43,946 nucleotides of DNA, taken from a virus. Taxonomy: Duplodnaviria > Heunggongvirae > Uroviricota > Caudoviricetes. The translations under genes were made by a program, and so were the position numbers. Below are positions 6,028-27,117 of this stretch, in pieces. Under the pieces are notes generated by a model. The model saw only the letters and a program-made list of their open reading frames with translations. It did no database searches and was not told the origin of the DNA. Location: the IMG/VR virus record IMGVR_UViG_3300045988_019467. The stretch is one strand, 5' to 3'. The first letter of the stretch is position 1. Every line of letters starts with the position of its first letter.

Positions 6028-6109
6028 TTGCCTTGCATGTTGGAATAATTTATTCTTGACATGTAAATCCGGGTGGCCCGGGTTCCAACGTCCAGGGGAC
6101 ATACTGACT

Positions 6110-6811
6110 ATGAATCGTTTTTTACGTTATCCGTTCCAGGAAGAAGCTGGGGCAGAAGATAAAGCTGGTGGCGGTGACGCGCCAAAAATGTTCACAGCCG
6201 AAGAAGTTCAGGCGCTGATTGAGAAAGAAGTCGCCGGTCTTAAGGCTAATCAGGAAGCATTGCTGGCGGAGAAGAAAGAAGCCGCTCGTAAAGCAAAAGA
6301 GGCCGAAGAAGAACGGCAGCGCGCGCACCAGGAGGCACTAAAAGCCGCCGGTAAGATGGACGAGTTCGAAAAGACGATTCGTAGCCAGTATGACCCGGTG
6401 TTAGCCGAGAAAGATGGTCGCATCTCCAAAATGGCGGAGCGCATCCTCGGCAGCGAACGTAAAGCGGTGTTAGGCTCTTTCGCAGGTGACTTCATCACCC
6501 CGGAAGCAGTGGACATTCTTGCACCGTTCGTTAAGACTGAGTTCGAAGGCGATGATGTGGTTACTAAGTTTGTTGGCGCAGATGGCAACGTAATCACGAC
6601 TGACCCTGAACAGTTCCGCAAATACCTGCGCGAACATAAAGCGTTTTCGCATTTGATTAAAGCAAATGCAGCTTCCGGCGGCGGGGCTTCCGGTGGCAAA
6701 GGCGGCGGGGCCGCACCAGCGTTTAAAGACATGAGTGAATCGGAGCGTTTAGCTCTGTATAAATCGAACCCTGCCGAATTTGAACGGCAACTTAAAGCCC
6801 TGAGGAAATAA
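6110..6811 (+). CDS. capsid scaffolding protein (putative)
   Basis: Highly charged, Ala/Glu/Lys-rich, coiled-coil-like protein immediately upstream of the major capsid gene; start taken at ATG 6110. Confidence 0.55.
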   Translation: MNRFLRYPFQEEAGAEDKAGGGDAPKMFTAEEVQALIEKEVAGLKANQEALLAEKKEAARKAKEAEEERQRAHQEALKAAGKMDEFEKTIRSQYDPVLAEKDGRISKMAERILGSERKAVLGSFAGDFITPEAVDILAPFVKTEFEGDDVVTKFVGADGNVITTDPEQFRKYLREHKAFSHLIKANAASGGGASGGKGGGAAPAFKDMSESERLALYKSNPAEFERQLKALRK

Positions 6812-6813
6812 TA

Positions 6814-7863
6814 ATGGCAATTACCACTATCGGCGATATCGTAACTGGCAACATCCCGGTCCTGGCGTCTTATATGACCGAGGACCCGGTGGAAAAAACC
6901 GCGTTCTTTCAGTCCGGTATTCTGACCCCGACTCCGTACGCTGCCGAGATTGCTCGCGGCCCGTCCAACATCGCCAACATTCCTTTCTGGAAAGCGATTG
7001 ATACTTCTATCGAGCCTAACTACTCGAACGATGTGTACCAGGACATTGCAACCCCGCGCAACGTGCAAACCGGCGAGATGATGGCCCGTGTTGCGTACCT
7101 GAACGAAGGTTTTGGTCAGGCGGACCTGACTGTTGAACTTACCAGCCAGAATCCGCTGCAATCCGTGGCTTCTCGTCTGGATAACTTCTGGCAGCGCCAG
7201 GCACAACGCCGTCTGATCGCTACCGCGCTCGGTCTGTACAACGACAACGTAGCCGCTACCGACGCGTACCACGAGCAGAACGACATGGTTGTAGACGTGT
7301 CCGCTACTCTGGGCTTCGATGCTGGCGCGTTCATCGACGCTACCCAGACTATGGGTGATGCACTGATGGGTAACGGTGGTGAAGTGCTGGGCGCTATCGC
7401 TATGCACAGCTTCGTATACGCGCAGGCGCGTAAGCAGCAGCTCATTGACTTCATCAAAGACGCTGACAACGACACCCTGTTTGCCACCTACCAGGGCTAC
7501 CGTGTGATTGTTGACGACAGCATGACCGTAGTCGGCACCGGCGGCAGCCGTAAGTTCATCTCCATCATCTTCGGCAACGGCGCTATCGGTTATGGAGAAG
7601 GTAACCCGACCAATCCGCTGGCATATGAGCGCGAAGAGTCCCGCGGCAACGGCGGTGGCGTCGAAACCCTGTGGACCCGTAAGACATGGTTGCTGCACCC
7701 GTTTGGTTACAGCTTCACCAGCGCGGTGATCACCGGCAACGGCACCGAGACTGTTGCACGCTCCGCTTCCTGGCAGGACCTGGCGAACGCATCCAACTGG
7801 AACCGTGTTGTTGAGCGTAAGCACGTACCGATTGCCTTCCTGGTAACTGGTGTAGGGGCTTAA
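6814..7863 (+). CDS. major capsid protein (putative)
   Basis: 349-aa ORF right after the scaffold-like gene and followed by a terminator hairpin; assignment by synteny and size. Confidence 0.65.
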   Translation: MAITTIGDIVTGNIPVLASYMTEDPVEKTAFFQSGILTPTPYAAEIARGPSNIANIPFWKAIDTSIEPNYSNDVYQDIATPRNVQTGEMMARVAYLNEGFGQADLTVELTSQNPLQSVASRLDNFWQRQAQRRLIATALGLYNDNVAATDAYHEQNDMVVDVSATLGFDAGAFIDATQTMGDALMGNGGEVLGAIAMHSFVYAQARKQQLIDFIKDADNDTLFATYQGYRVIVDDSMTVVGTGGSRKFISIIFGNGAIGYGEGNPTNPLAYEREESRGNGGGVETLWTRKTWLLHPFGYSFTSAVITGNGTETVARSASWQDLANASNWNRVVERKHVPIAFLVTGVGA

Positions 7864-7879
7864 GGTTAAGCTATAATCG

Positions 7880-7907
7880 AGAGGGACTTCGGTCCCTCTT
7901 TTCATTT
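7880..7907 (+). terminator. intrinsic terminator after the capsid gene
   Basis: AGAGGGAC-TTCG-GTCCCTCT stem-loop followed by TTTCATTT. Confidence 0.55.
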
Positions 7908-10842: not shown

Positions 10843-11255
10843 TGGGCTACTTTGAGGACTTAACCAAAGCGTTTGATGTGCCGTTGGTAGCCTTCGGGAA
10901 CGCAAACGGCATCAAGGTTGCGCTTGAAAACATCGACGCGCCGACGTCAACAGATACGCCGTATCTGGCGAGTTACATGTTGCTGGCGGATACGGAACAG
11001 GCGGATTTGTTCTTCACCGAGCAACGCTCTGGTATCTATCAGGTCGACATTAACTACGCATCGGTGAAAGGTAGCGCGCCAATCAATAAAATGGCAGACT
11101 TACTTAACACGGCGTTTAAAGCAGGTAAGTCATTTTCACGTAACGACATCTGCGCCGAGGTTCAATCGGTTAGCCTGGGGCCGCTGATTGTAGAAAACGG
11201 ATGGGCCAAACGACCATTGTCAATTAACTTTATTGCATTCACCAAGAGGCTGTGA
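10842..11255 (+). CDS. tail terminator / tail completion protein (putative)
   Basis: 137-aa ORF immediately upstream of the tail-tube-sized gene. Confidence 0.4.
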   Translation: MGYFEDLTKAFDVPLVAFGNANGIKVALENIDAPTSTDTPYLASYMLLADTEQADLFFTEQRSGIYQVDINYASVKGSAPINKMADLLNTAFKAGKSFSRNDICAEVQSVSLGPLIVENGWAKRPLSINFIAFTKRL

Positions 11256-12424
11256 ATATGGCTACAACTCCTTTTAAGGGCGCGACTACCGCGCAATTCT
11301 ATGTGGCGGAAACTACCCCTGGCGTAACACCGACTAACCCGGTATGGTCGCCGTTGCGTAACACAGGTGGCGTTCCTGCTATTACCCGTGACACGCTGAC
11401 CTCCAACGAACTGGACGGCAGCCGTGAAACTACATCCATCCGAACCGGTAACAAACAGGTTAGCGGTGAATACGCGGTCGAGCTTAGCTCTAAAAGCCAG
11501 GACGACTGGCTGGCGGGTGCTTTAGGCTCTACGTGGCAATCCGGTGTTTCTCTGTCGGGGCTGTCGATTACCGTCGCACCGGTGGGCAAGACGTTCACCC
11601 GTGCCGAAGGTAGCTTTATTACTGACGGTGTGGAAGTAGGCGACCTGATTGCGTTTACTGACTTAACCGGCGATAACGCTAAACCGTTTATTGTTACTGC
11701 GGTAGAGGCACTGGTGGTAACTGGTGCGGGTATTCAACACACTCTGATCGCCGAGACTGCTACTACCGCGGCTAAGACCGGCGACAAACTGGAAACCGGC
11801 AGCCAGTGTAAGACGTTCTCTATTCTCACCTGGTACAAGGGCCAGTGCGGCGGGACAGACGCGTACACGCTTACCAAAGGCGTGGAAGTTTCTGGTTTCA
11901 CTGTTGAACAGGCCGTTAACGCGATGGTGACGGGCAGCTTCCCGTTCATCGGGCGCAGCCAGGAGATTCTTACCGCGGCGCCGTCTGGTTCCGACTTCTC
12001 CTCTGTTACGTTTGGTGACGAGCCGTTCTCCTCGGTTGACGTTTCCGTGTTCGATGGTTCTACGCCGTTGCGTTGCGACAGCCTGACCATCACCAACGAC
12101 AACAGCGCGTCCGCACAGTTCGAACTCGGCAACACTAACGTTGCATTTGTTGAGCGTAGCCGCGCGGCTAACACCTTCTCTATCTCTGGCAAGCTGTACG
12201 ACATGGCGATGATTCAGAAGTTTATCAACGAACAGCAGGTAGAGATTAACTCTATTCTGGCTGGGGTAAACGGGGCTATGTCTTTCAGTTTGAAACGTGC
12301 AGAACTCACGGCGGTCACACCGGAGATTGGCGGACCTGAGTCAATCACTCAGTCTATTGAAGGCCAGGCTACTGGCAACCAGTACCAGTCGTCTATTGTT
12401 ATCCAGCGTATCACCTACGCATAA
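11252..12424 (+). CDS. major tail (tube) protein (putative)
   Basis: 390-aa Thr/Ser/Gly-rich ORF between neck genes and the tail chaperone/tape measure genes; followed by a strong terminator. Confidence 0.5.
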   Translation: MNMATTPFKGATTAQFYVAETTPGVTPTNPVWSPLRNTGGVPAITRDTLTSNELDGSRETTSIRTGNKQVSGEYAVELSSKSQDDWLAGALGSTWQSGVSLSGLSITVAPVGKTFTRAEGSFITDGVEVGDLIAFTDLTGDNAKPFIVTAVEALVVTGAGIQHTLIAETATTAAKTGDKLETGSQCKTFSILTWYKGQCGGTDAYTLTKGVEVSGFTVEQAVNAMVTGSFPFIGRSQEILTAAPSGSDFSSVTFGDEPFSSVDVSVFDGSTPLRCDSLTITNDNSASAQFELGNTNVAFVERSRAANTFSISGKLYDMAMIQKFINEQQVEINSILAGVNGAMSFSLKRAELTAVTPEIGGPESITQSIEGQATGNQYQSSIVIQRITYA

Positions 12425-19325: not shown

Positions 19326-19687
19326 ACATTAACGACTACACGGGAATACCTTACGACTTTCGCAAACGCAATTGCTGGCATCATGTGCGTATTGTCCGTG
19401 CGGATGCCGGGTTAGCAACCCCGGCGTTCGACGCTACAAGCCCAACGGCAATTAACGAAGCGTTTGATGAAGGTCATCGTGACACGAAGGGGCTTACGAA
19501 AATTGATAAGCCTGAAAACTTGTGCGCGGTTCTTATGGGTAGGCGCCGCGGCGGCAGAATCGTGTGGCACGCCGGGGTCTACTTTGACGGAATGGTGAGT
19601 CATTGCGAAATGGCCTCCCGTCAGGTACGGCTTGACAGGCTTGTTGACCTAAGAGACTTGTACACGGAGATTGAATTTTGGCGATAA
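19322..19687 (+). CDS. tail assembly protein K-like (NlpC/P60-type fold)
   Basis: Cys/His pattern (NCWHHV ... VWHAGVYFDGMVSHCE) resembling NlpC/P60 catalytic residues found in gpK; position before the I/J-like gene. Confidence 0.5.
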   Translation: MNINDYTGIPYDFRKRNCWHHVRIVRADAGLATPAFDATSPTAINEAFDEGHRDTKGLTKIDKPENLCAVLMGRRRGGRIVWHAGVYFDGMVSHCEMASRQVRLDRLVDLRDLYTEIEFWR

Positions 19688-22224
19688 TCCTGCACTACAC
19701 GCGAAATGCTAACGGTGTTTTCGACCGTACAAAACACGTCGGGATGCCAATGGAGTTTGTTGTTAACCATATCCCTGACGGCGTTCCTGTGCGCGTATAT
19801 CTCGGTGAGATTGGTGACGACACCGATATCACTGACGACTTCGACGCGCTTAAAGACGAAGACGCGGTGTATCACATAGTAGAAGGAGCTGGTGGAGGTG
19901 CGCTTGTAGTAGGTGCGCTTGTTGCTTTGGTCGTCGTTGCGGCTACGGTTTTACTAACTAAGAAACCGAGTCTGGCGGTAACAGCGACAAATAACCAAGC
20001 AAAATCCGCTAATAACAGCCTAACAGACCGCTCCAACAAGCCGCGTCCTTACGAGCGCTCTTATGACATATGCGGGACTGTGCAGACAATCCCTAACGAC
20101 CTTATGCAGACGTACAAGGCGTTCAACTCCACTGGTGCTTTGCTGGAGTATTCGTACTATGACGCTGGTCGCGGGCATCTGCATATTGAGGCTGATGGCG
20201 TCACGGAAGGCGACACCCTGATAAGCGACATCACAGGTTCTTCTGTTGCCGTGTACGCCCCCTATACATCACCAAACAATACAACTACCCCGCAACTACA
20301 AATCGGCGACGTCATTGACCAGAAACTCTATGTGACGTACTCCAACGACGACGTTGACGGTATTGTACTGAAAGCACCGAACGATATCGGGGCCAACCCA
20401 AGCGCCGACGGCACCGCTAAACGTATTTCAAACACCGGCTACATCTATGACCCGTCAGGAGACTCTGCTTTTTCTGAGTTTCTTAGCGTCGGTGATGTGG
20501 CGGTGCTGAGCAACTTTGACGTTGCGGATGTCACTAACCTGAACGGCTCGTTTGAGGTTTTATACGTTGACGACTTCGAAGTAAGATTAGCCGTAAACGG
20601 TGCGTCTAACTGGGCCGCGTTGACCAGCGGACAGACGTACACGCTAACAGAGCGTTCAGATACGTTTATCGGCCCGAGCAACACATATGACGTATCTCTT
20701 ACGGACTGGTATTACATGGTACGCGGAGAAGTTGACCGGGTACTTGCTAACGTTGCCGGGCAGAACGGCCTCTACAAATACGACGGCGGCTATAACCGTA
20801 CCAGCGTAACCGTAGAACTCCAGTATCAGATGATTGACTCTCAGCGTAACCCGTTGGGCGATATTTACACGGTACAGGCTACAATTACAGGCAACAATAC
20901 GGATTACGTCGGTACGTCTATCTATGGCCAATTGCCGACAGCGTCTCGTTTCCGTGCCCGCATGCGCCGCGTAACGAATTTCGACAAGGACTACGACGGG
21001 ACGGTAAGTGACGAGATAACCTTCATCAACCTGTACGGGCAGTCACTGGACACAACCCCACACTACGGCAACCGAACTACCGTACATTGTGCCCGTAAAC
21101 AGACGCCGCGCGCTGCCAGTATTGATAACCCTGAACTGCGCATGATCGCGACCGAGATGTGCTACAAATACTTAGGCAATGGGGTATTCGATACGGTAAT
21201 GACACCAAACACTCAGGCCGTGCAGTCGCTAATCAGGCTGGCGCGCGACCCGGCGGTGGGTAATCTGGAACTGACAACGGCAAACATGGATAAGTTACTA
21301 TCCGTGCAGGAAGAAATAGAGTCCTATTTCGGAAGTGAATTAGCGGGGCAGTTCTGCTACACGTTCGACGACTACGACACCACGATGCAGGACATCGTTC
21401 AGACCATAGCGGAAGCCGTGTTCTGTACTGCGTACCGTAAAGGCGCGGATATTATGCTGCGATTCGACCGTCCTGTCGCGGGGCCTGAAATGGTATTCAC
21501 ACACCGCAGTAAGACAACTGGTACGGAGAAATGGACCCGCACGTTCAACGATTCGACAACCTACGATAGCCTGTCGTTCTCGTACATTGACCCTGATACT
21601 AACGTACAGGAAACGATTTATATCCCGGAAGAACTCGGCGCAAACACCGAGGAGTACGAATCGAAGGGGGTGCGCAACTACCAGCAGGCGTACTGGCTGG
21701 CGTGGCGCCGCTACCAGCGCAACACGTTAAGTAAAGTTGTCGTAGAGTTTGAAGCTACGGAAGAAGGTGCGCTCGCCACCCCCGGCGGGGTAATCAGCGT
21801 TGTTAAAGGCTCTCGCATTGCGCCGCAAGATGGTTATGTTGTTGCCGTTAATGGGCTTACACTGACATTGTCCCAGCCTGTTACGTTTACCCCCGGAGAC
21901 GACCACTCCATCATTCTTAAGAAGCGCGACGGCTCCGTACAGAGTATCTCCGTTATCAAAGGAAGTCATGACCGCGAAGTGGTTATGCTCTCCGCGCCGG
22001 AGGAGGCAATCTACACGGGGAATAGCGCGCTAAAAACTGAGTTTTCATTCGGCAACGAAGCAAGGCATAATGCTCAGAAGATAGTTGTTTCTTCAATAGA
22101 CCCGGGCGATGACCGCACGGTCAAGATTACTGGCTACAACTATGACGACGGATTCTATAAATACGACGGCGTCGCACCTTTAGGCCGCGGTTTCTCCGAC
22201 GGATTCAGCAATGGTTTTAATTAA
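19678..22224 (+). CDS. tail tip protein: gpI-like N-terminal segment fused to a host-specificity gpJ-like region
   Basis: N-terminal region ends in a Gly-rich hydrophobic stretch (GAGGGALVVGALVALVVVAATVLL); downstream RARMRRVT resembles the lambda J IRMRRMT motif; start uncertain (TTG 19678 or ATG 19744). Confidence 0.55.
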   Translation: MAIILHYTRNANGVFDRTKHVGMPMEFVVNHIPDGVPVRVYLGEIGDDTDITDDFDALKDEDAVYHIVEGAGGGALVVGALVALVVVAATVLLTKKPSLAVTATNNQAKSANNSLTDRSNKPRPYERSYDICGTVQTIPNDLMQTYKAFNSTGALLEYSYYDAGRGHLHIEADGVTEGDTLISDITGSSVAVYAPYTSPNNTTTPQLQIGDVIDQKLYVTYSNDDVDGIVLKAPNDIGANPSADGTAKRISNTGYIYDPSGDSAFSEFLSVGDVAVLSNFDVADVTNLNGSFEVLYVDDFEVRLAVNGASNWAALTSGQTYTLTERSDTFIGPSNTYDVSLTDWYYMVRGEVDRVLANVAGQNGLYKYDGGYNRTSVTVELQYQMIDSQRNPLGDIYTVQATITGNNTDYVGTSIYGQLPTASRFRARMRRVTNFDKDYDGTVSDEITFINLYGQSLDTTPHYGNRTTVHCARKQTPRAASIDNPELRMIATEMCYKYLGNGVFDTVMTPNTQAVQSLIRLARDPAVGNLELTTANMDKLLSVQEEIESYFGSELAGQFCYTFDDYDTTMQDIVQTIAEAVFCTAYRKGADIMLRFDRPVAGPEMVFTHRSKTTGTEKWTRTFNDSTTYDSLSFSYIDPDTNVQETIYIPEELGANTEEYESKGVRNYQQAYWLAWRRYQRNTLSKVVVEFEATEEGALATPGGVISVVKGSRIAPQDGYVVAVNGLTLTLSQPVTFTPGDDHSIILKKRDGSVQSISVIKGSHDREVVMLSAPEEAIYTGNSALKTEFSFGNEARHNAQKIVVSSIDPGDDRTVKITGYNYDDGFYKYDGVAPLGRGFSDGFSNGFN

Positions 22225-22236
22225 AGAGGACTCTAT

Positions 22237-24228
22237 ATGTCAAGCGGATGCGGTGATGTTTTAAGCCTGGCGGATTTACAAACCGCCAAGAAACACCAGA
22301 TTTTCGAAGCAGAGGTAATTACCGGTAAATCTGGCGGAGTAGCCGGGGGTGCAGATATTGATTACTCCACCAATCAGGTTACTGGACAGACCCAGAAGAC
22401 GTTACCTGCCGTGTTGCGCAGCCTGGGTCTAGCCCCTGCATCTTTCGATTTCACATCTGGGGGTACTTTAACTACTGACGACAGGAACAAGGCCGTGTTA
22501 TGGCCCTCTACGGACGGCGGCGACGGGGACTGGTACTATTGGGCAGGTAGTTTGCCGAAGACTATACCGGCATCATCTACACCCGCATCTTCCGGCGGTG
22601 TAGGGGGAGGCGCATGGTTGTCTGTTGGGGGGGTTATTTTACGACAGGACCTGGCTGCTTTTGGTGGAGCATCATTGATTGGTCCAGGTGTAATGTCCCG
22701 CGGAAACGATAAGTTTTCTATCATGCAAGGGAGAACCGGGGAGTATCAAAACGATGGTATGACATACGGGATAGGAGTTATCCTTACGGACCCTATCACT
22801 GGCACTATACCCAACGCCAGCACTGCAAAATTTAACTACCTTGCTATCATAGACGACCAGGTTAATGCTGTTGACGATTTAACGGCCGGGACAAAAGTTG
22901 ACGGGCTACAGGTAAACCATGTTTTCGGCGGCACCGCAGCCAAAGGTGGCAGGCACGCGGCAGAATTTGTATCTACCCATAAATCACCTACCAGTGTCGA
23001 CAACCCGGACCGTAACTATGTGGGTGTGGTTGGGTTGGCAGTGTCGCAAAATGGCGACGGAGGGGCAGTATCAACGTCCCCGAGCACATTCAAAGGTGGG
23101 TACTTTGGCGGGAATATGTACGGTAGTTTGAGCCCATCCGCCGTTGGTGTATATAACGTGACCGCATGTGAGTTTAACACAGTAGCCTCCGAAGGGTCGT
23201 CTGTATGGTATAGGTCAGGGATTCAGGTCATTGGTGGTGGGGCCGTACAAGGAAGCGCCGTAGACGTTGGGGTTGCCTTGTCGAATCTTTCGACAGCTAC
23301 GGTCCGATGGAGAAACGCCTTTCGTATAGGGAACATGAATGGGGGGCACGCGTTAGCATCGGACAGCAAAATACTTGTAGCGTTTACCGATGTGACGTCG
23401 ATCGCATCTGGGTTCGAGATACCAAAGTGCTCAACTACTATTTTAACATCCGGAGACGTTAATTTACAGAACGATAAATTAATCATGAGCGCTTCTGGGT
23501 CTGCTATTGAACTGGGAAGCACCACAGCCCCAGGTACGGCATACATAGACTTTCACTCAAGCGGAAACCCTAACGATTATGATGCAAGGGTTGTGGTTAG
23601 TGGCGGGGCGTCGTCTTCCGGGCAAGGCACTTATGGGGTTAACGCGGGTGTTATTCAGCTTAATGCTTCTACTGAAGTCATAGCCGCCGCCAACATAAGA
23701 CCCTCTACGGACAATACCATATCGAATGGCACCGCGTCTAGACGGTGGTCTGTGGTATACGCGGGAACCGGGACGATAAACACATCAAATGAAGACCTCA
23801 AAGTACGGGATAAGATACTTGAAGCCGAACGTGCCGCGGCCCTGGAAATAAAGAATGACATATGGAAATTTAGATTCAAAGATGCTATCGCCGAGAAAGG
23901 CAACGGTGCCAGGTATCACTTTGGCGTAGGTGCGCAATCTATAGGTAAAATTTTGCGTAAGCATGGACTGGACCCTGAAATGTACGCTTTCTACTGCCAC
24001 GATACCTGGGACGCGGAGTATGAGCCAATCATGGCTAAGCGTACCGTACTTAAGGACCAAGAAGTAACGGAAATAGACGACCTAACCGGCAAAACTATTA
24101 CTACCACTAAGACGATTGAAGTCGAGGAAGAGTACGACACCGGGGAAAAGAGATGCACCTTAGAGGCAGGTGAAAACTTCGGCGTTCGCTATGAGGAACT
24201 TCTTTGTTTTATTATGGCGGCCCTGTAA
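22237..24228 (+). CDS. tail fibre with C-terminal intramolecular chaperone (peptidase S74-like) domain
   Basis: C-terminal region (...RAAALEIKNDIWKFRFKD...YHFGVGAQSIGKILRKHGLDPEMYAFYCHDTWDAEY...) matches the self-cleaving chaperone domain of endosialidase and L-shaped tail fibres; Gly-rich central region. Confidence 0.65.
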   Translation: MSSGCGDVLSLADLQTAKKHQIFEAEVITGKSGGVAGGADIDYSTNQVTGQTQKTLPAVLRSLGLAPASFDFTSGGTLTTDDRNKAVLWPSTDGGDGDWYYWAGSLPKTIPASSTPASSGGVGGGAWLSVGGVILRQDLAAFGGASLIGPGVMSRGNDKFSIMQGRTGEYQNDGMTYGIGVILTDPITGTIPNASTAKFNYLAIIDDQVNAVDDLTAGTKVDGLQVNHVFGGTAAKGGRHAAEFVSTHKSPTSVDNPDRNYVGVVGLAVSQNGDGGAVSTSPSTFKGGYFGGNMYGSLSPSAVGVYNVTACEFNTVASEGSSVWYRSGIQVIGGGAVQGSAVDVGVALSNLSTATVRWRNAFRIGNMNGGHALASDSKILVAFTDVTSIASGFEIPKCSTTILTSGDVNLQNDKLIMSASGSAIELGSTTAPGTAYIDFHSSGNPNDYDARVVVSGGASSSGQGTYGVNAGVIQLNASTEVIAAANIRPSTDNTISNGTASRRWSVVYAGTGTINTSNEDLKVRDKILEAERAAALEIKNDIWKFRFKDAIAEKGNGARYHFGVGAQSIGKILRKHGLDPEMYAFYCHDTWDAEYEPIMAKRTVLKDQEVTEIDDLTGKTITTTKTIEVEEEYDTGEKRCTLEAGENFGVRYEELLCFIMAAL

Positions 24229-24232
24229 AACT

Positions 24233-24258
24233 AAGGCCCCAAACGGGGCCTTTTCTCT
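24233..24258. terminator. bidirectional intrinsic terminator (AAGGCCCC-AAAC-GGGGCCTT + TTCTCT)
   Basis: Same stem as 2655, 4609 and 12429; between the tail fibre gene and the convergent minus-strand replication module. Confidence 0.6.
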
Positions 24259-24906: not shown

Positions 24907-26327
24907 TTCTTACCTCTGCGCTTCATATAATTAAGTAGTTCGTCCTGTACAGACCTTTTCTCGTCTGTACGCGCGGCGACAACTTCATCAAGAGTATCTC
25001 TGGCTATTATTTGATAAATGAATACAGACCGTTTGTATCCAGATTGCATCTGCCTTACCGGGCCTATGCGCTCGATAACCTGCAGATAATGCTCCAGGTT
25101 CCACCCCTGACTCATAAATGCCATGTGGTGTCCGCCGTGTTGTAGCGACAGCCCGTGACCCGCGGAGGCCGGGTGTATCAGGAGCATAGGTATTTCACCG
25201 CGGTTCCATGCTTCCATCTGCTTATTACCCTTAGCACCTTTGGCAAACGCCTGCGCCTGAGGGAATCGCTTAAGGATGCGCTCCAGTTCGTGCTTGAACT
25301 GATAGGCCACCAGCAACGGCGCGCCCTGTAACTCCTCTACAATGGACTCGAGCGCATCAAGTTTCGTGTCGTGCACTTTTTCCCAATCTTTGGTTGCTTC
25401 GCCGTCGGGGCCCGACACATATACGGCACCGGATGCAATCTGCAAGCACTTCGACGTCTTCGCCGCGGCGTTAGCCGCTTCAACTTCCCCACTTTCCAGT
25501 TCTGCGAATAGCTTCTCCTCCATATCTATGTACGCCTGACGCGCTTTCTTCGGCAGGTCAATTTCCACCGGCACGATAATAGGTGCTTCACAACCAAACC
25601 ACTCGGCAGCGTCAATCGTGAGACTAATGTCCTTCATCTTCTGGTGAATCTCGTTATCTGCTCCCGGGCGGGCATGGTACTCGCGTGCCATCGCTGATTT
25701 GCCTTTCTGTACCGAGTTAAACCATCTGTCGGTGAATGCCGTGTACGAGGAACCCAGGCGCTCACCTGCGTCGATAAACCAGTTCTGACCCCACAAGTCC
25801 TTGAGGCCGTTTGGCGAGGGCGTACCGGTCAGGTTGATAAAACGCTTAACCTTTCCGAATGCCACTTTACTAAGTGCCTTTGCCCTCTTGCTACCACCTG
25901 AACGGCTGCGGAACGATTTCAGCTTCGTGCTCTCATCAGCAACGATAACCGTAAAAGGCCAGTCGTCTTTGCCGTAGTAGTCAATCAGCCACTCTATTAC
26001 CTCGTAGTTGATACAAATCACATTGGCGTCTGACTCCAGCGCCGCGATGCGGCGCTTCTCTGAACCAGTTGCATCGGCGACACGCAGACAAGGGAATTTC
26101 CATTTCTCTTGTTCCGCGGGCCACGTACCCGACGCAACGCGTAAAGGGGCAAGAATTAACACTCGGTCGTCGTCATTAAGTTGCCCATTACGGAACAGGC
26201 GGTTTAAAGTCCACAAGACGCTGCCCGTCTTCCCGGCGCCCATGCTTGCCCATATGTTGCAGCGATGGTGCCGCAACATGAACGAAGTCATTAGCTTCTG
26301 GTACTCGCGCCTTTGAAACTTACTCAT
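24903..26327 (-). CDS. SNF2 / DEAD-DEAH-type superfamily 2 helicase
   Basis: Walker A SMGAGKTGS, DExx-like box VIVADEST, and C-terminal helicase-domain-like region. Confidence 0.65.
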   Translation of the reverse strand: MSKFQRREYQKLMTSFMLRHHRCNIWASMGAGKTGSVLWTLNRLFRNGQLNDDDRVLILAPLRVASGTWPAEQEKWKFPCLRVADATGSEKRRIAALESDANVICINYEVIEWLIDYYGKDDWPFTVIVADESTKLKSFRSRSGGSKRAKALSKVAFGKVKRFINLTGTPSPNGLKDLWGQNWFIDAGERLGSSYTAFTDRWFNSVQKGKSAMAREYHARPGADNEIHQKMKDISLTIDAAEWFGCEAPIIVPVEIDLPKKARQAYIDMEEKLFAELESGEVEAANAAAKTSKCLQIASGAVYVSGPDGEATKDWEKVHDTKLDALESIVEELQGAPLLVAYQFKHELERILKRFPQAQAFAKGAKGNKQMEAWNRGEIPMLLIHPASAGHGLSLQHGGHHMAFMSQGWNLEHYLQVIERIGPVRQMQSGYKRSVFIYQIIARDTLDEVVAARTDEKRSVQDELLNYMKRRGKK

Positions 26328-27117
26328 TTACGGCCCCCATGAACGCCTTTATAAATTCAGCGGCTACTTGCGGGACGATAGCATTGCCGTAACCGCGCAG
26401 GCGCCCCACTCTGGCGGGAACCCCATTATCTGACGAGCCATAATCGGGTGGAATGATTCGAGTTTTACCATCTGCTCCTTTGTCGGTTTTCCATTCGGAC
26501 CAAAAGTGTGTAGCCACATCTGGCGATATAGCGTGTCGTTTCTCATCCTCCCATCGTTTCTCATGAATGACCGACTTAAATCCCCTGAATCCCTGTGTGA
26601 CCGTGTTGTAGCGGTAGCCCAGGGTTGCCCCAAAGAAGAGTCTTTCTCTTTTGTGCGGTGCGCCGACGCTACAAGCTGGGAGTACGGCAAACCCGACGGC
26701 GTAGTCTTCTCCTTCCAGGTGAGTTTGTAAATCGCACATCCACGATTTTGCAATTGCTGGCGCAACCTGCTCCCCAAAGAGGACTGGAGGGTGGCACTCG
26801 CTGATGAGGTCGAGGAAGACTGGCGCGAGGTGTCTCGGGTCGAACTGTCCGAGTTGTTTTCCTGCCGCGCTAAACGGTTGGCAAGGCGGGCTTCCCGTCC
26901 AGAGAGGCGTATCTTCCGAAACTCCCGCAAGTCTGAGCGCGAGAGGCCAGCCGCCGATACCAGCGAAAAAATGACACTGGGTGAATCCGTCAAGGTCTTC
27001 TGGTCTAATTTCGGTAATGCTTCTTTCATCTACAACTCCAAAGGGTATTTGACCCTGTTTTATTAATTCACGCAGCCACGCGGCGGCGCCTTTATCCCAT
27101 TCATTGTAATAGTTCAT
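26320..27117 (-). CDS. DNA (cytosine-5) methyltransferase, orphan
   Basis: C5-MTase motif I FFAGIGG, motif IV GSPPCQPFSAAGK (catalytic PCQ), ENV-like GEQV, C-terminal GYGNAIVPQV; no adjacent restriction endonuclease. Confidence 0.7.
   Translation of the reverse strand: MNYYNEWDKGAAAWLRELIKQGQIPFGVVDERSITEIRPEDLDGFTQCHFFAGIGGWPLALRLAGVSEDTPLWTGSPPCQPFSAAGKQLGQFDPRHLAPVFLDLISECHPPVLFGEQVAPAIAKSWMCDLQTHLEGEDYAVGFAVLPACSVGAPHKRERLFFGATLGYRYNTVTQGFRGFKSVIHEKRWEDEKRHAISPDVATHFWSEWKTDKGADGKTRIIPPDYGSSDNGVPARVGRLRGYGNAIVPQVAAEFIKAFMGAVNE

Follow-up and report, generated by a model that had tools for sequence, protein, structure and literature searches.

Kagunaviruses are glycan-dependent phages whose tailspike is encoded directly 3′ of the tail-tip gene (PMC11990801), and the receptor-binding proteins of the genus follow the rule of a conserved anchor joined to a swapped body (PMC10408124). 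Among the closest described proteins are the endosialidase tailspikes of K1G, K1H and 63D, which are K1 capsule depolymerases, and endoNF of podophage K1F, whose stalk and chaperone are represented by PDB 3gw6. A second point of reference is pb1, the receptor-binding protein of siphovirus T5, which recognizes O-antigen and carries a 133-aa self-cleaving chaperone. The roles of the catalytic-site residues in such chaperones have been described for T5 pb1 (PMC4690869) and for endoNF (PMC8326128). The closest relative of all belongs to EcoPhCCP1, a phage with a host range of only 4 of 41 UTI isolates. Its published description likens the tail spike to an endosialidase, without an analysis of domains or processing (PMC12919940).

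The locus considered here lies within a window of 43,946 nucleotides, the whole stretch of DNA that was analyzed. Its open reading frame very probably specifies the only receptor-binding tail protein of a Kagunavirus-like siphophage, a tailspike built of four modules that ends in an intramolecular chaperone (IMC) and is predicted to cleave itself after assembly (Table 1). A tailspike equipped with a self-cleaving chaperone is a commonplace, well-known design, and the chaperone itself is textbook material.

Table 1. Features of the tailspike locus, with positions counted from the first letter of the window
Feature	Position	Strand	Basis or remark
Shine-Dalgarno AAGAGGA	22224..22230	+	6 nt 5′ of ATG; sequence reading
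Tailspike/receptor-binding protein gene, complete	22237..24228	+	ORF list; 663 aa, ATG start, TAA stop
N-terminal anchor module, aa 1-160	22237..22716	+	Identity to Kagunavirus endosialidase tailspikes; PF18668
Central module, about aa 150-405	22684..23451	+	Unnamed family; presumed receptor-binding, possibly enzymatic body
Stalk, about aa 406-516, endosialidase-type triple-β-helix/prism	23452..23784	+	PF12219; structure alignments
Predicted autocleavage motif T516-S517-N-E-D-L-K522	23782..23802	+	Alignment to endoNF and T5 pb1; conservation
Intramolecular chaperone (IMC, peptidase S74-type), aa 517-663, 147 aa, 16.8 kDa	23785..24225	+	Profile, Foldseek
GC-rich hairpin AAGGCCCC-AAAC-GGGGCCTT, then TTCT	24233..24256		Sequence; 4 nt past stop codon

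The tailspike gene and its genomic setting

The reading frame lies exactly at the coordinates given in the preliminary description, on the + strand, and its product has a computed precursor mass of 69.2 kDa. The Shine-Dalgarno sequence shares the last base of the TAA stop codon of the upstream gene (22222-22224). Over all 663 aa the product shows 97.4% identity to the 'tail spike protein' of EcoPhCCP1 (XHQ01510.1, PQ384582), which is essentially the same protein; the two genomes are 98% identical here and share their gene order. PHROG tail spike families match the product at E = 4e-70 and 5e-65. It had been labeled a tail fiber; workers in the field, like the closest GenBank record, call such a protein a tailspike.

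The gene order runs from the tape measure through the minor tail and tail-tip genes to the tailspike gene. The 848-aa protein encoded upstream matches a PHROG tail protein family (2e-256), and the locus sits directly 3′ of the J-like tail-tip gene, in synteny with EcoPhCCP1, K1G and K1H; the K1-specific Kagunavirus tailspikes occupy the same position 3′ of the tail-tip gene. Both features by which a Kagunavirus tailspike is recognized, a genus-conserved N-terminal anchor and a locus 3′ of the J-like gene, are present. The earlier suggestion that this is the receptor-binding protein gains support from the tail-tip gene directly upstream, the genus anchor and the swapped body, which together constitute the signature of a Kagunavirus receptor-binding protein. 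The receptor would be a host surface glycan, either O-antigen or capsule. As a clue to receptor or serotype, the DNA of the body was compared with complete E. coli genomes; this search returned a single prophage tailspike of 70% identity, which is too little to predict the receptor.

Just past the gene, the GC-rich hairpin folds as RNA with an energy of -15.5 kcal/mol (z = -4.5), and none of 200 shuffled sequences folds as well. It was not reported by a consensus terminator scan. The hairpin is probably a bidirectional intrinsic terminator separating the rightward tail module from the leftward replication module.

Anchor, stalk and C-terminal chaperone

The part of the protein that precedes the chaperone had been characterized as rich in Gly, Ser and Thr. 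The composition bears this out, with G+S+T amounting to 34.5% of residues 1-516 against 15.8% of residues 517-662 (mean over the 27 long ORFs of the window, 20.6%, s.d. 4.8%); nevertheless, this part is no mere shaft but a succession of three modules, namely the anchor, the central module and an endosialidase-type stalk. The anchor resembles those of the K1G, K1H and 63D endosialidase tailspikes, with 73-75% identity over aa 1-160 (75% to a Kagunavirus endosialidase tailspike, 73% to K1G/K1H/63D), and contains a Tail_spike_N domain (PF18668, aa 95-131, E = 3.4e-14). Homologues that carry other adaptors begin to align with the tailspike at aa 112-197, and the sequence comparison places a putative recombination junction between the anchor and the swapped body at about aa 112-167. 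On the virion, the genus-specific N-terminal ~110-160 residues would dock the trimer on the tail tip beside the J-like protein.

At aa 450-516 the stalk scores 29 bits with PF12219 End_tail_spike, whose cutoff is 25, and its sequence can be aligned to the stalk regions of 3gw6, 6eu4 and 4hiz, so that an intertwined triple-β-helix or prism stalk is predicted to precede the chaperone. The same stalk-chaperone build is found in endoNF and in the K1-type Kagunavirus endosialidases, the latter with 39% identity over aa 451-596. It is these likenesses, at the anchor, over the C-terminal stretch and in the End_tail_spike match, that could suggest an endosialidase, a K1 capsule depolymerase like the K1G, K1H and 63D tailspikes, and the EcoPhCCP1 paper indeed remarks on a protein with '73% homology' to endosialidase (PMC12919940). 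The similarity does not, however, extend beyond the anchor and the stalk-chaperone part, with nothing aligning over aa 160-450. Moreover, the protein lacks the PF12217 β-propeller, the PF12195 β-barrel and the PF12218 N-terminal extension, all of which are present in a true Kagunavirus endosialidase (P0029). With its catalytic domains absent, an endosialidase (GH58) identity is refuted at the level of sequence, and the chance that the protein is such an enzyme is negligible. Where the K1 endosialidases have the GH58 β-propeller sialidase, this tailspike has an unrelated module of ~250 aa, and K1 polysialic acid is therefore not its expected substrate.

That the C-terminal ~150 residues form a chaperone domain was proposed at the outset, and sequence, profile and predicted fold now agree on this point, with the domain comprising 147 aa from Ser517. 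A single-sequence phmmer search against solved IMC structures found 3gw6 of endoNF (5.9e-14), 4uw8 of T5 pb1 (4.8e-11) and 3gud of phi29 gp12 (2.9e-10), and a 30-sequence profile found 3gw6 at E = 3.5e-46, 3gud at 2.1e-42 and 4uw8 at 2.5e-35. The full-length AF2 model, built from a 30-sequence alignment, has a mean pLDDT of 58.9 and an unusable N-terminal 200 aa, and only its C-terminal domain was used. These three structures were also the only Foldseek matches of this model at E ≤ 1e-3 (3gw6 4.5e-8, 4uw8 2e-7, 3gud 2.5e-4), each with a probability of 1.00 and with low TM-scores. Residues 520-663, whose pLDDT is about 73-89, comprise three helices (529-542, 562-575, 652-662) and a long β-hairpin (594-642), an arrangement that fits the IMC 'tentacle' topology as far as a monomeric model can depict it; the model used below for the body is likewise a monomer, and confidence in the two is moderate to low (pLDDT 59 and 71).

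Peptidase S74 profiles had been put forward as a check on the assignment, and their outcome was divided. Pfam S74 is found at E ≤ 0.01 in 28 of the 30 close homologues (best E = 6e-16), whereas the protein taken alone reaches only 16.4 bits with PF13884 Peptidase_S74, below the 22-bit gathering cutoff, in an alignment limited to profile positions 25-58. This alignment leaves out profile positions 1-24, and with them the cleavage motif; it is the divergence of these positions, not the absence of the domain, that accounts for the sub-threshold score.

The predicted cleavage motif aligns with T-(S911A)-N-G-E-R-K916 of endoNF and with T1263-(S1264A)-D-A-R-L-K1269 of T5 pb1. By this alignment the scissile bond is predicted to be T516/S517, with S517 as the nucleophile and K522 as the general base. 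The Ser-Lys dyad formed by S517 and K522 shows the S-x4-K spacing and lies at the domain boundary, and the accessory residues are correctly spaced as well, with an Arg 14 residues before the Ser (R503), an Asp 25 residues before it (D492) and a Thr at -1 (T516). In the alignment, D492, R503, T516, S517 and K522 correspond to D1239, R1250, T1263, S1264 and K1269 of T5 pb1, and R503, S517 and K522 to R897, S911 and K916 of endoNF, with which the tailspike thus has both the T-S-N...K cleavage motif and the stalk arginine in common. T516, S517 and K522 are invariant in 30 of 30 homologues; the stalk residues D492 (27/30) and R503 (26/30) complete the cleavage site. From the conserved residues, autocleavage at this bond is inferred, and the protein is presumed to trimerize.

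It is improbable that the chaperone-type domain instead aids trimer folding and then stays in place, uncleaved, as a distal knob on a full-length virion subunit of 69 kDa. Such retention would accord with the divergence just past the nucleophile, where the protein reads S-N-E-D-L-K against a family consensus of S-D-x-R-x-K (N518 and D520 stand against D in 27/30 and R in 19/30 homologues), with the failure of the Pfam S74 model to align over the cleavage motif, and with the presence of the IMC region in the deposited chains 7y5s (668 aa), 9vvr (843 aa) and 6eu4 (716 aa), although these chains perhaps reflect just the expressed construct. All five catalytic-site residues are kept, however, and S-N also stands at the cleavage site of endoNF, a proven self-cleaving protein (PMC8326128). 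Furthermore, T5 pb1 in its uncleaved form fails to block adsorption, an indication that the chaperone has to leave for the receptor site to be exposed (PMC4690869).

Self-cleavage at Ser517, the preferred reading, would convert the 69.2-kDa precursor into a 52.4-kDa mature protein (residues 1-516) and a 16.8-kDa fragment. The mature protein would thus be 147 aa shorter than the ORF, in keeping with the ~150 aa originally envisaged. In the proposed sequence of events, the three chaperone domains would come together first and then serve as a template on which the intertwined stalk folds. A correctly folded stalk would then bring Arg503 of a neighboring chain, together with Asp492, beside a kinked Thr516-Ser517 bond, and Lys522 would activate the Ser517 hydroxyl for cutting of the peptide bond that precedes Ser517. 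Upon departure of the chaperone, the virion would keep a kinetically stable mature subunit of 516 aa.

T5 pb1 is alike in its function and in its self-cleaving domain, but is a long fiber of 1,396 aa with another shaft and a bullet-shaped tip; beyond the chaperone and the ~30 residues at the end of the stalk, no similarity between pb1 and the tailspike was detectable.

The central module

For the body of the tailspike, a central module of ~250 aa, sequence searches of Pfam, NCBIfam and PDB found no match. At E ≤ 1e-3 it is nevertheless found in 2,365 representative clusters (50% identity; metagenomes and prophages), whereas it is rare in culture, occurring in 6 of 50,697 cultured phage records. 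A set of six residues defines the family, R239, R259, Y261, D274, E312 and D343, each conserved at 91-99% over 188 central domains. E. coli and Citrobacter prophages as well as metagenomes encode 'tail fiber domain-containing proteins' (for example P0003, P0008, P0015 and P0059) that are alike in central module, stalk and chaperone, with body identities of 57-71% for the closest prophage and metagenomic relatives and 35-50% for others. These proteins differ at their N-termini, which are of the P22 Head_binding or T7-tail type, and such other adaptors imply that podoviruses or other virion types carry this receptor-binding body as well. With the same body standing behind P22 Head_binding, T7 tail and Tail_spike_N adaptors, the module is, to judge by these sequence architectures, exchanged horizontally among P22-like, T7-like and Kagunavirus adaptors.

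An AF2 model of aa 113-520 (51 sequences; pLDDT 71) was compared with PDB and BFVD by Foldseek, and the body had no global match of significance in either. Across the two AF2 models, the best of the weak matches are all intertwined trimeric fibers, namely the endosialidase stalk, T4 gp34, HylP and VgrG. DSSP assigns nearly no intra-chain strands to the model over aa ~182-402, despite a pLDDT of up to 89. These models hint that the body is an intertwined trimer rather than a classical β-helix. Separately, when PDB sequences were searched with the profile at a permissive threshold (E ≤ 10), only weak matches to β-helix caps (Sf6 tailspike, glucanase, pectin lyase) emerged; these were rejected as evidence of fold, as the part of the profile that they hit derives from N-terminal regions of the relatives and not from the body of this protein. 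Covariation was examined by mean-field DCA over the 188 central domains; a first run was swamped by gap artefacts, and the cleaned run (Meff about 155) left a single pair above the shuffled null, with leading pairs 16-26 residues apart, an underpowered result that serves as a hint only.

The strongest competing account of the module is that it forms a single-chain right-handed parallel β-helix depolymerase, a glycosidase or lyase acting on O-antigen or capsule, in which D274, E312 and D343 would supply the catalytic carboxylates. We regard this as a real possibility, albeit one that stands below even chances. The closest records are annotated as tail spikes, the BASEL Kagunaviruses have enzymatic tailspikes in use (PMC11990801), and the relatives carry a pectate-lyase-like N-terminal cap (PF12708 positions 1-48) just upstream of the shared module. 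The near-invariant R239, R259, Y261, D274, E312 and D343 resemble an active site, and the spacing of the top covariation pairs is what stacked solenoid rungs would produce, although only the one pair exceeds the null. On the other hand, the protein has no PF12708, PF13229 or other Pfam β-helix match, and neither AF2 model matches a right-handed β-helix in Foldseek, abundant though this fold is in PDB. The intertwined trimeric fibers among the weak Foldseek matches and the scarcity of intra-chain strands likewise speak against it. In P0169, finally, a complete right-handed β-helix (aa 168-414) is present separately from the module of the type discussed here (aa 951-1230).

An enzymatic-tailspike activity of the body is thus unsupported, given no right-handed β-helix signature and no match to a known depolymerase. 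The body would recognize a host surface glycan and possibly cleave it, and any enzymatic activity is conjectural; the body may instead be a non-enzymatic, fiber-like binder. Tentatively, and with slightly less confidence than the β-helix account receives, the module could represent a large uncharacterized class of phage receptor-binding bodies, possibly with a new glycan-depolymerase or glycan-binding fold.

Significance for host range and engineering

The analysis identifies the host-range determinant of a phage close to EcoPhCCP1, a published therapy candidate, and corrects the impression that its tailspike is an endosialidase. The junction at aa ~112-167 would offer a natural splice point for host-range engineering. 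For recombinant production, residues 517-663 are predicted to be required for folding, and the active product would be the 52-kDa species. The only matter of wider interest lies in the fold and activity of the central module, which is widespread yet unstudied.

Genomic setting of the tailspike gene

By its sequence affinities, the window is classed as a Kagunavirus-like siphophage (Guernseyvirinae). Identity over the 6 kb around the tailspike gene is 98% with Escherichia phage EcoPhCCP1 and, outside the tailspike body, 87–90% with K1G, K1H, and many other Kagunaviruses; the tailspike itself shares 97.4% identity with the EcoPhCCP1 'tail spike protein'. The tailspike gene is preceded, in order, by the genes for the tape measure, the minor tail proteins, and a tail-tip protein of 848 aa (matching a PHROG tail protein at 2e-256), and on its 3' side lies a convergent replication module carrying Toprim, SNF2 helicase, and methyltransferase. 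This is the tailspike locus of Kagunavirus, a glycan-dependent genus (PMC11990801). Where the tail-tip gene starts is ambiguous: as called mechanically, its ORF opens with a TTG and shares 10 nt with the preceding gene, whereas an alternative ATG at 19744 would yield 826 aa; the EcoPhCCP1 homolog is annotated as 824 aa. Elsewhere in the window, two overlapping ORFs are probably spurious, one of 551 aa that is antisense to + strand genes at 6056–7863 and one of 221 aa in another frame of a methyltransferase-like gene (26320–27117).

The tailspike ORF lies exactly where the preliminary description had placed it. An AAGAGGA ribosome-binding site is located 6 nt 5' of the ATG and shares the last base of the preceding gene's stop codon. 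Positioned 4 nt 3' of the tailspike stop is a strong, GC-rich hairpin (24233–24252; -15.5 kcal/mol, z = -4.5) preceded by an A-run and followed by T-rich sequence on the + strand. Flanked in this way, the hairpin could terminate transcription of both convergent modules; a consensus terminator scan did not report it.

Features of the tailspike gene, its product, and other ORFs of the window
Feature	Window position (strand)	Residues	Description
Tailspike ORF	22237–24228 (+)	1–663	ATG to TAA, 663 aa
Anchor		1–160	
Tail_spike_N domain		95–131	E = 3.4e-14
Central module (body)	22684–23451	~150–405	
Stalk		~405–516	
Intramolecular chaperone		517–663	
GC-rich hairpin + T-rich sequence	24233–24256		perfect 8-bp stem, AAGGCCCC-AAAC-GGGGCCTT
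Tail-tip gene	19678–22224		848 aa from TTG 19678
Minor tail protein ORF	11252–12424		390 aa
Overlapping ORF	6250–7905 (-)		551 aa
Overlapping ORF	26364–27029 (-)		221 aa

The C-terminal chaperone and its cleavage site

The C-terminal ~150 residues had been described as a chaperone domain, and a single-sequence search, a profile, and a structural model agree on this identity. With the query sequence alone, phmmer against PDB sequences recovered the three classical intramolecular chaperone (IMC) structures, those of endoNF (3gw6, 5.9e-14), T5 pb1 (4uw8, 4.8e-11), and phi29 gp12 (3gud, 2.9e-10), as well as the newer IMC-bearing fibers 7y5s, 9vvr, and 6eu4. A 30-homolog profile strengthened the classical matches to 3.5e-46, 2.5e-35, and 2.1e-42, respectively. 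The best-predicted part of a full-length AF2 model is its final 140 residues (pLDDT about 73–89), which display the expected helices and long beta-hairpin (aa 594–642); Foldseek with this model matched only 3gw6, 4uw8, and 3gud at E <= 1e-3, each with a probability of 1.00. The proposed S74 profile match held for the family rather than for the query alone, which scored 16.4 bits against Pfam PF13884, under the 22-bit cutoff, and aligned only to profile positions 25–58. As 28 of the 30 homologs do match PF13884 (best E-value 6e-16), the shortfall reflects local divergence just past the cleavage site. All features of the chaperone family accessible to sequence analysis were found except a score above the Pfam gathering threshold, and we assign the domain to the IMC family of endosialidase, T5 pb1, and phi29 gp12.

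For endoNF and MyRF a Ser-Lys dyad is indispensable, and endoNF also requires the stalk residue Arg897 (PMC8326128). The T5 pb1 site comprises Asp1239, Arg1250 of the neighboring chain, Thr1263, Ser1264, and Lys1269, and the serine departs with the chaperone (PMC4690869). HMMER alignments place query T516-S517-N-E-D-L-K522 on endoNF T-A(S911A)-N-G-E-R-K916 and on T5 pb1 T1263-A(S1264A)-D-A-R-L-K1269, and the query has an equivalent at every T5 pb1 site position: D492 (present in 27/30 homologs), R503 (26/30), and T516, S517, and K522 (invariant in all 30). The Asn at +1 after S517 occurs in only 3 of 30 members of the query's own family but is the very residue that endoNF carries there. With all catalytic-site residues equivalent and conserved, cleavage is predicted at the T516/S517 bond, which would convert the 69.2-kDa precursor into a mature chain of 52.4 kDa and a 147-aa fragment of 16.8 kDa.

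Anchor and stalk in relation to endosialidases

Residues 1–160 (22237–22716), which share 75% identity with a Kagunavirus endosialidase tailspike and contain a Tail_spike_N domain, are assigned as the genus anchor. The stalk and chaperone (aa 451–596) are 39% identical to the same protein, and the stalk matches endosialidase-type stalks (PF12219, 29 bits against a cutoff of 25; 6eu4, 3gw6, and 4hiz). No alignment to this endosialidase tailspike was obtained for aa 160–450, and the endosialidase propeller, barrel, and N-extension domains are absent from the query, which rules out the tailspike as an endosialidase. EcoPhCCP1 was reported to have a protein '73% homologous' to endosialidase (PMC12919940); the value therefore reflects only the anchor, stalk, and chaperone. 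Without the sialidase catalytic domains, K1 capsule specificity is not to be assumed.

The remainder ahead of the chaperone had been characterized as Gly/Ser/Thr-rich, which is correct for composition (34.5% in aa 1–516 vs 15.8% in aa 517–662; mean 20.6%, sd 4.8% over the window's 27 long ORFs) but not in the sense of a uniform shaft, since aa 1–516 are modular. Among the window's remaining ORFs, only that of the 390-aa PHROG 'minor tail protein' (2e-80) has a tailspike-like content, at 32.7%.

A widespread central module

The central module has no match in Pfam, NCBIfam, or PDB sequences. An exhaustive profile search recovered 2,365 clusters at 50% identity (E <= 1e-3; 485 at E <= 1e-30) from metagenomes and prophages, in proteins of 250–1,557 aa, and the module is part of a large unnamed family. 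Among 50,697 cultured phage records, tblastn located it in only 6, those of EcoPhCCP1, four Pseudomonas syringae phages, and one Stappia phage. The body is also found behind P22 Head_binding (6/30 aligned sequences, best E-value 1e-65), T7 tail-fiber N-terminus, and Tail_spike_N adaptors, and homology to proteins with other adaptors begins at query residues 112–197. The same body on various adaptors reflects horizontal exchange of receptor-binding domains, a process described in Kagunavirus as well as in other genera (PMC10408124). Across 188 diverse domains, conservation peaks at aa 230–292, is minimal at the N-terminal edge (aa 150–209), and is also reduced just ahead of the stalk (aa 373–431); the family-defining polar residues R239, R259, Y261, D274, E312, and D343 are each 91–99% conserved.

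On the fold predictions, the body could be either a depolymerase built as a single-chain solenoid or a fiber-like binder of intertwined chains, and it may or may not be enzymatic. A further AF2 run on aa 113–520 with 51 sequences gave a model with a pLDDT of 71, rising to 80–89 over aa ~272–402, and despite these values DSSP assigned almost no intra-chain strands to that segment. Foldseek with the body model yielded no significant PDB match and no right-handed beta-helix; its weak best matches were all intertwined trimeric fibers (endosialidase stalk, T4 gp34, HylP hyaluronidase, and VgrG). DCA, underpowered here with one pair only above the shuffled null, gave leading pairs that form a ladder with 16–26-residue spacing. 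Relatives carry only a 48-residue PF12708 cap, upstream of the shared module. The 1,557-aa metagenomic giant fiber P0169 has a complete right-handed beta-helix (PF12708 + PF13229, aa 168–414) and, 500 residues downstream, a query-type module (aa 951–1230), so the two are distinct and able to coexist in one protein.

Together, the IMC domain, the catalytic residues, and the Kagunavirus tailspike locus support the initial reading of a self-cleaving, likely receptor-binding protein, which we classify as a Kagunavirus tailspike whose body is not that of an endosialidase. Whether to call it a 'tail fiber' or a 'tailspike' is a question of naming, which the predicted body fold does not decide. The domain arrangement is a familiar one, and GenBank already contains a nearly identical protein; what potential there is lies solely in the central module, which is widespread but unstudied.
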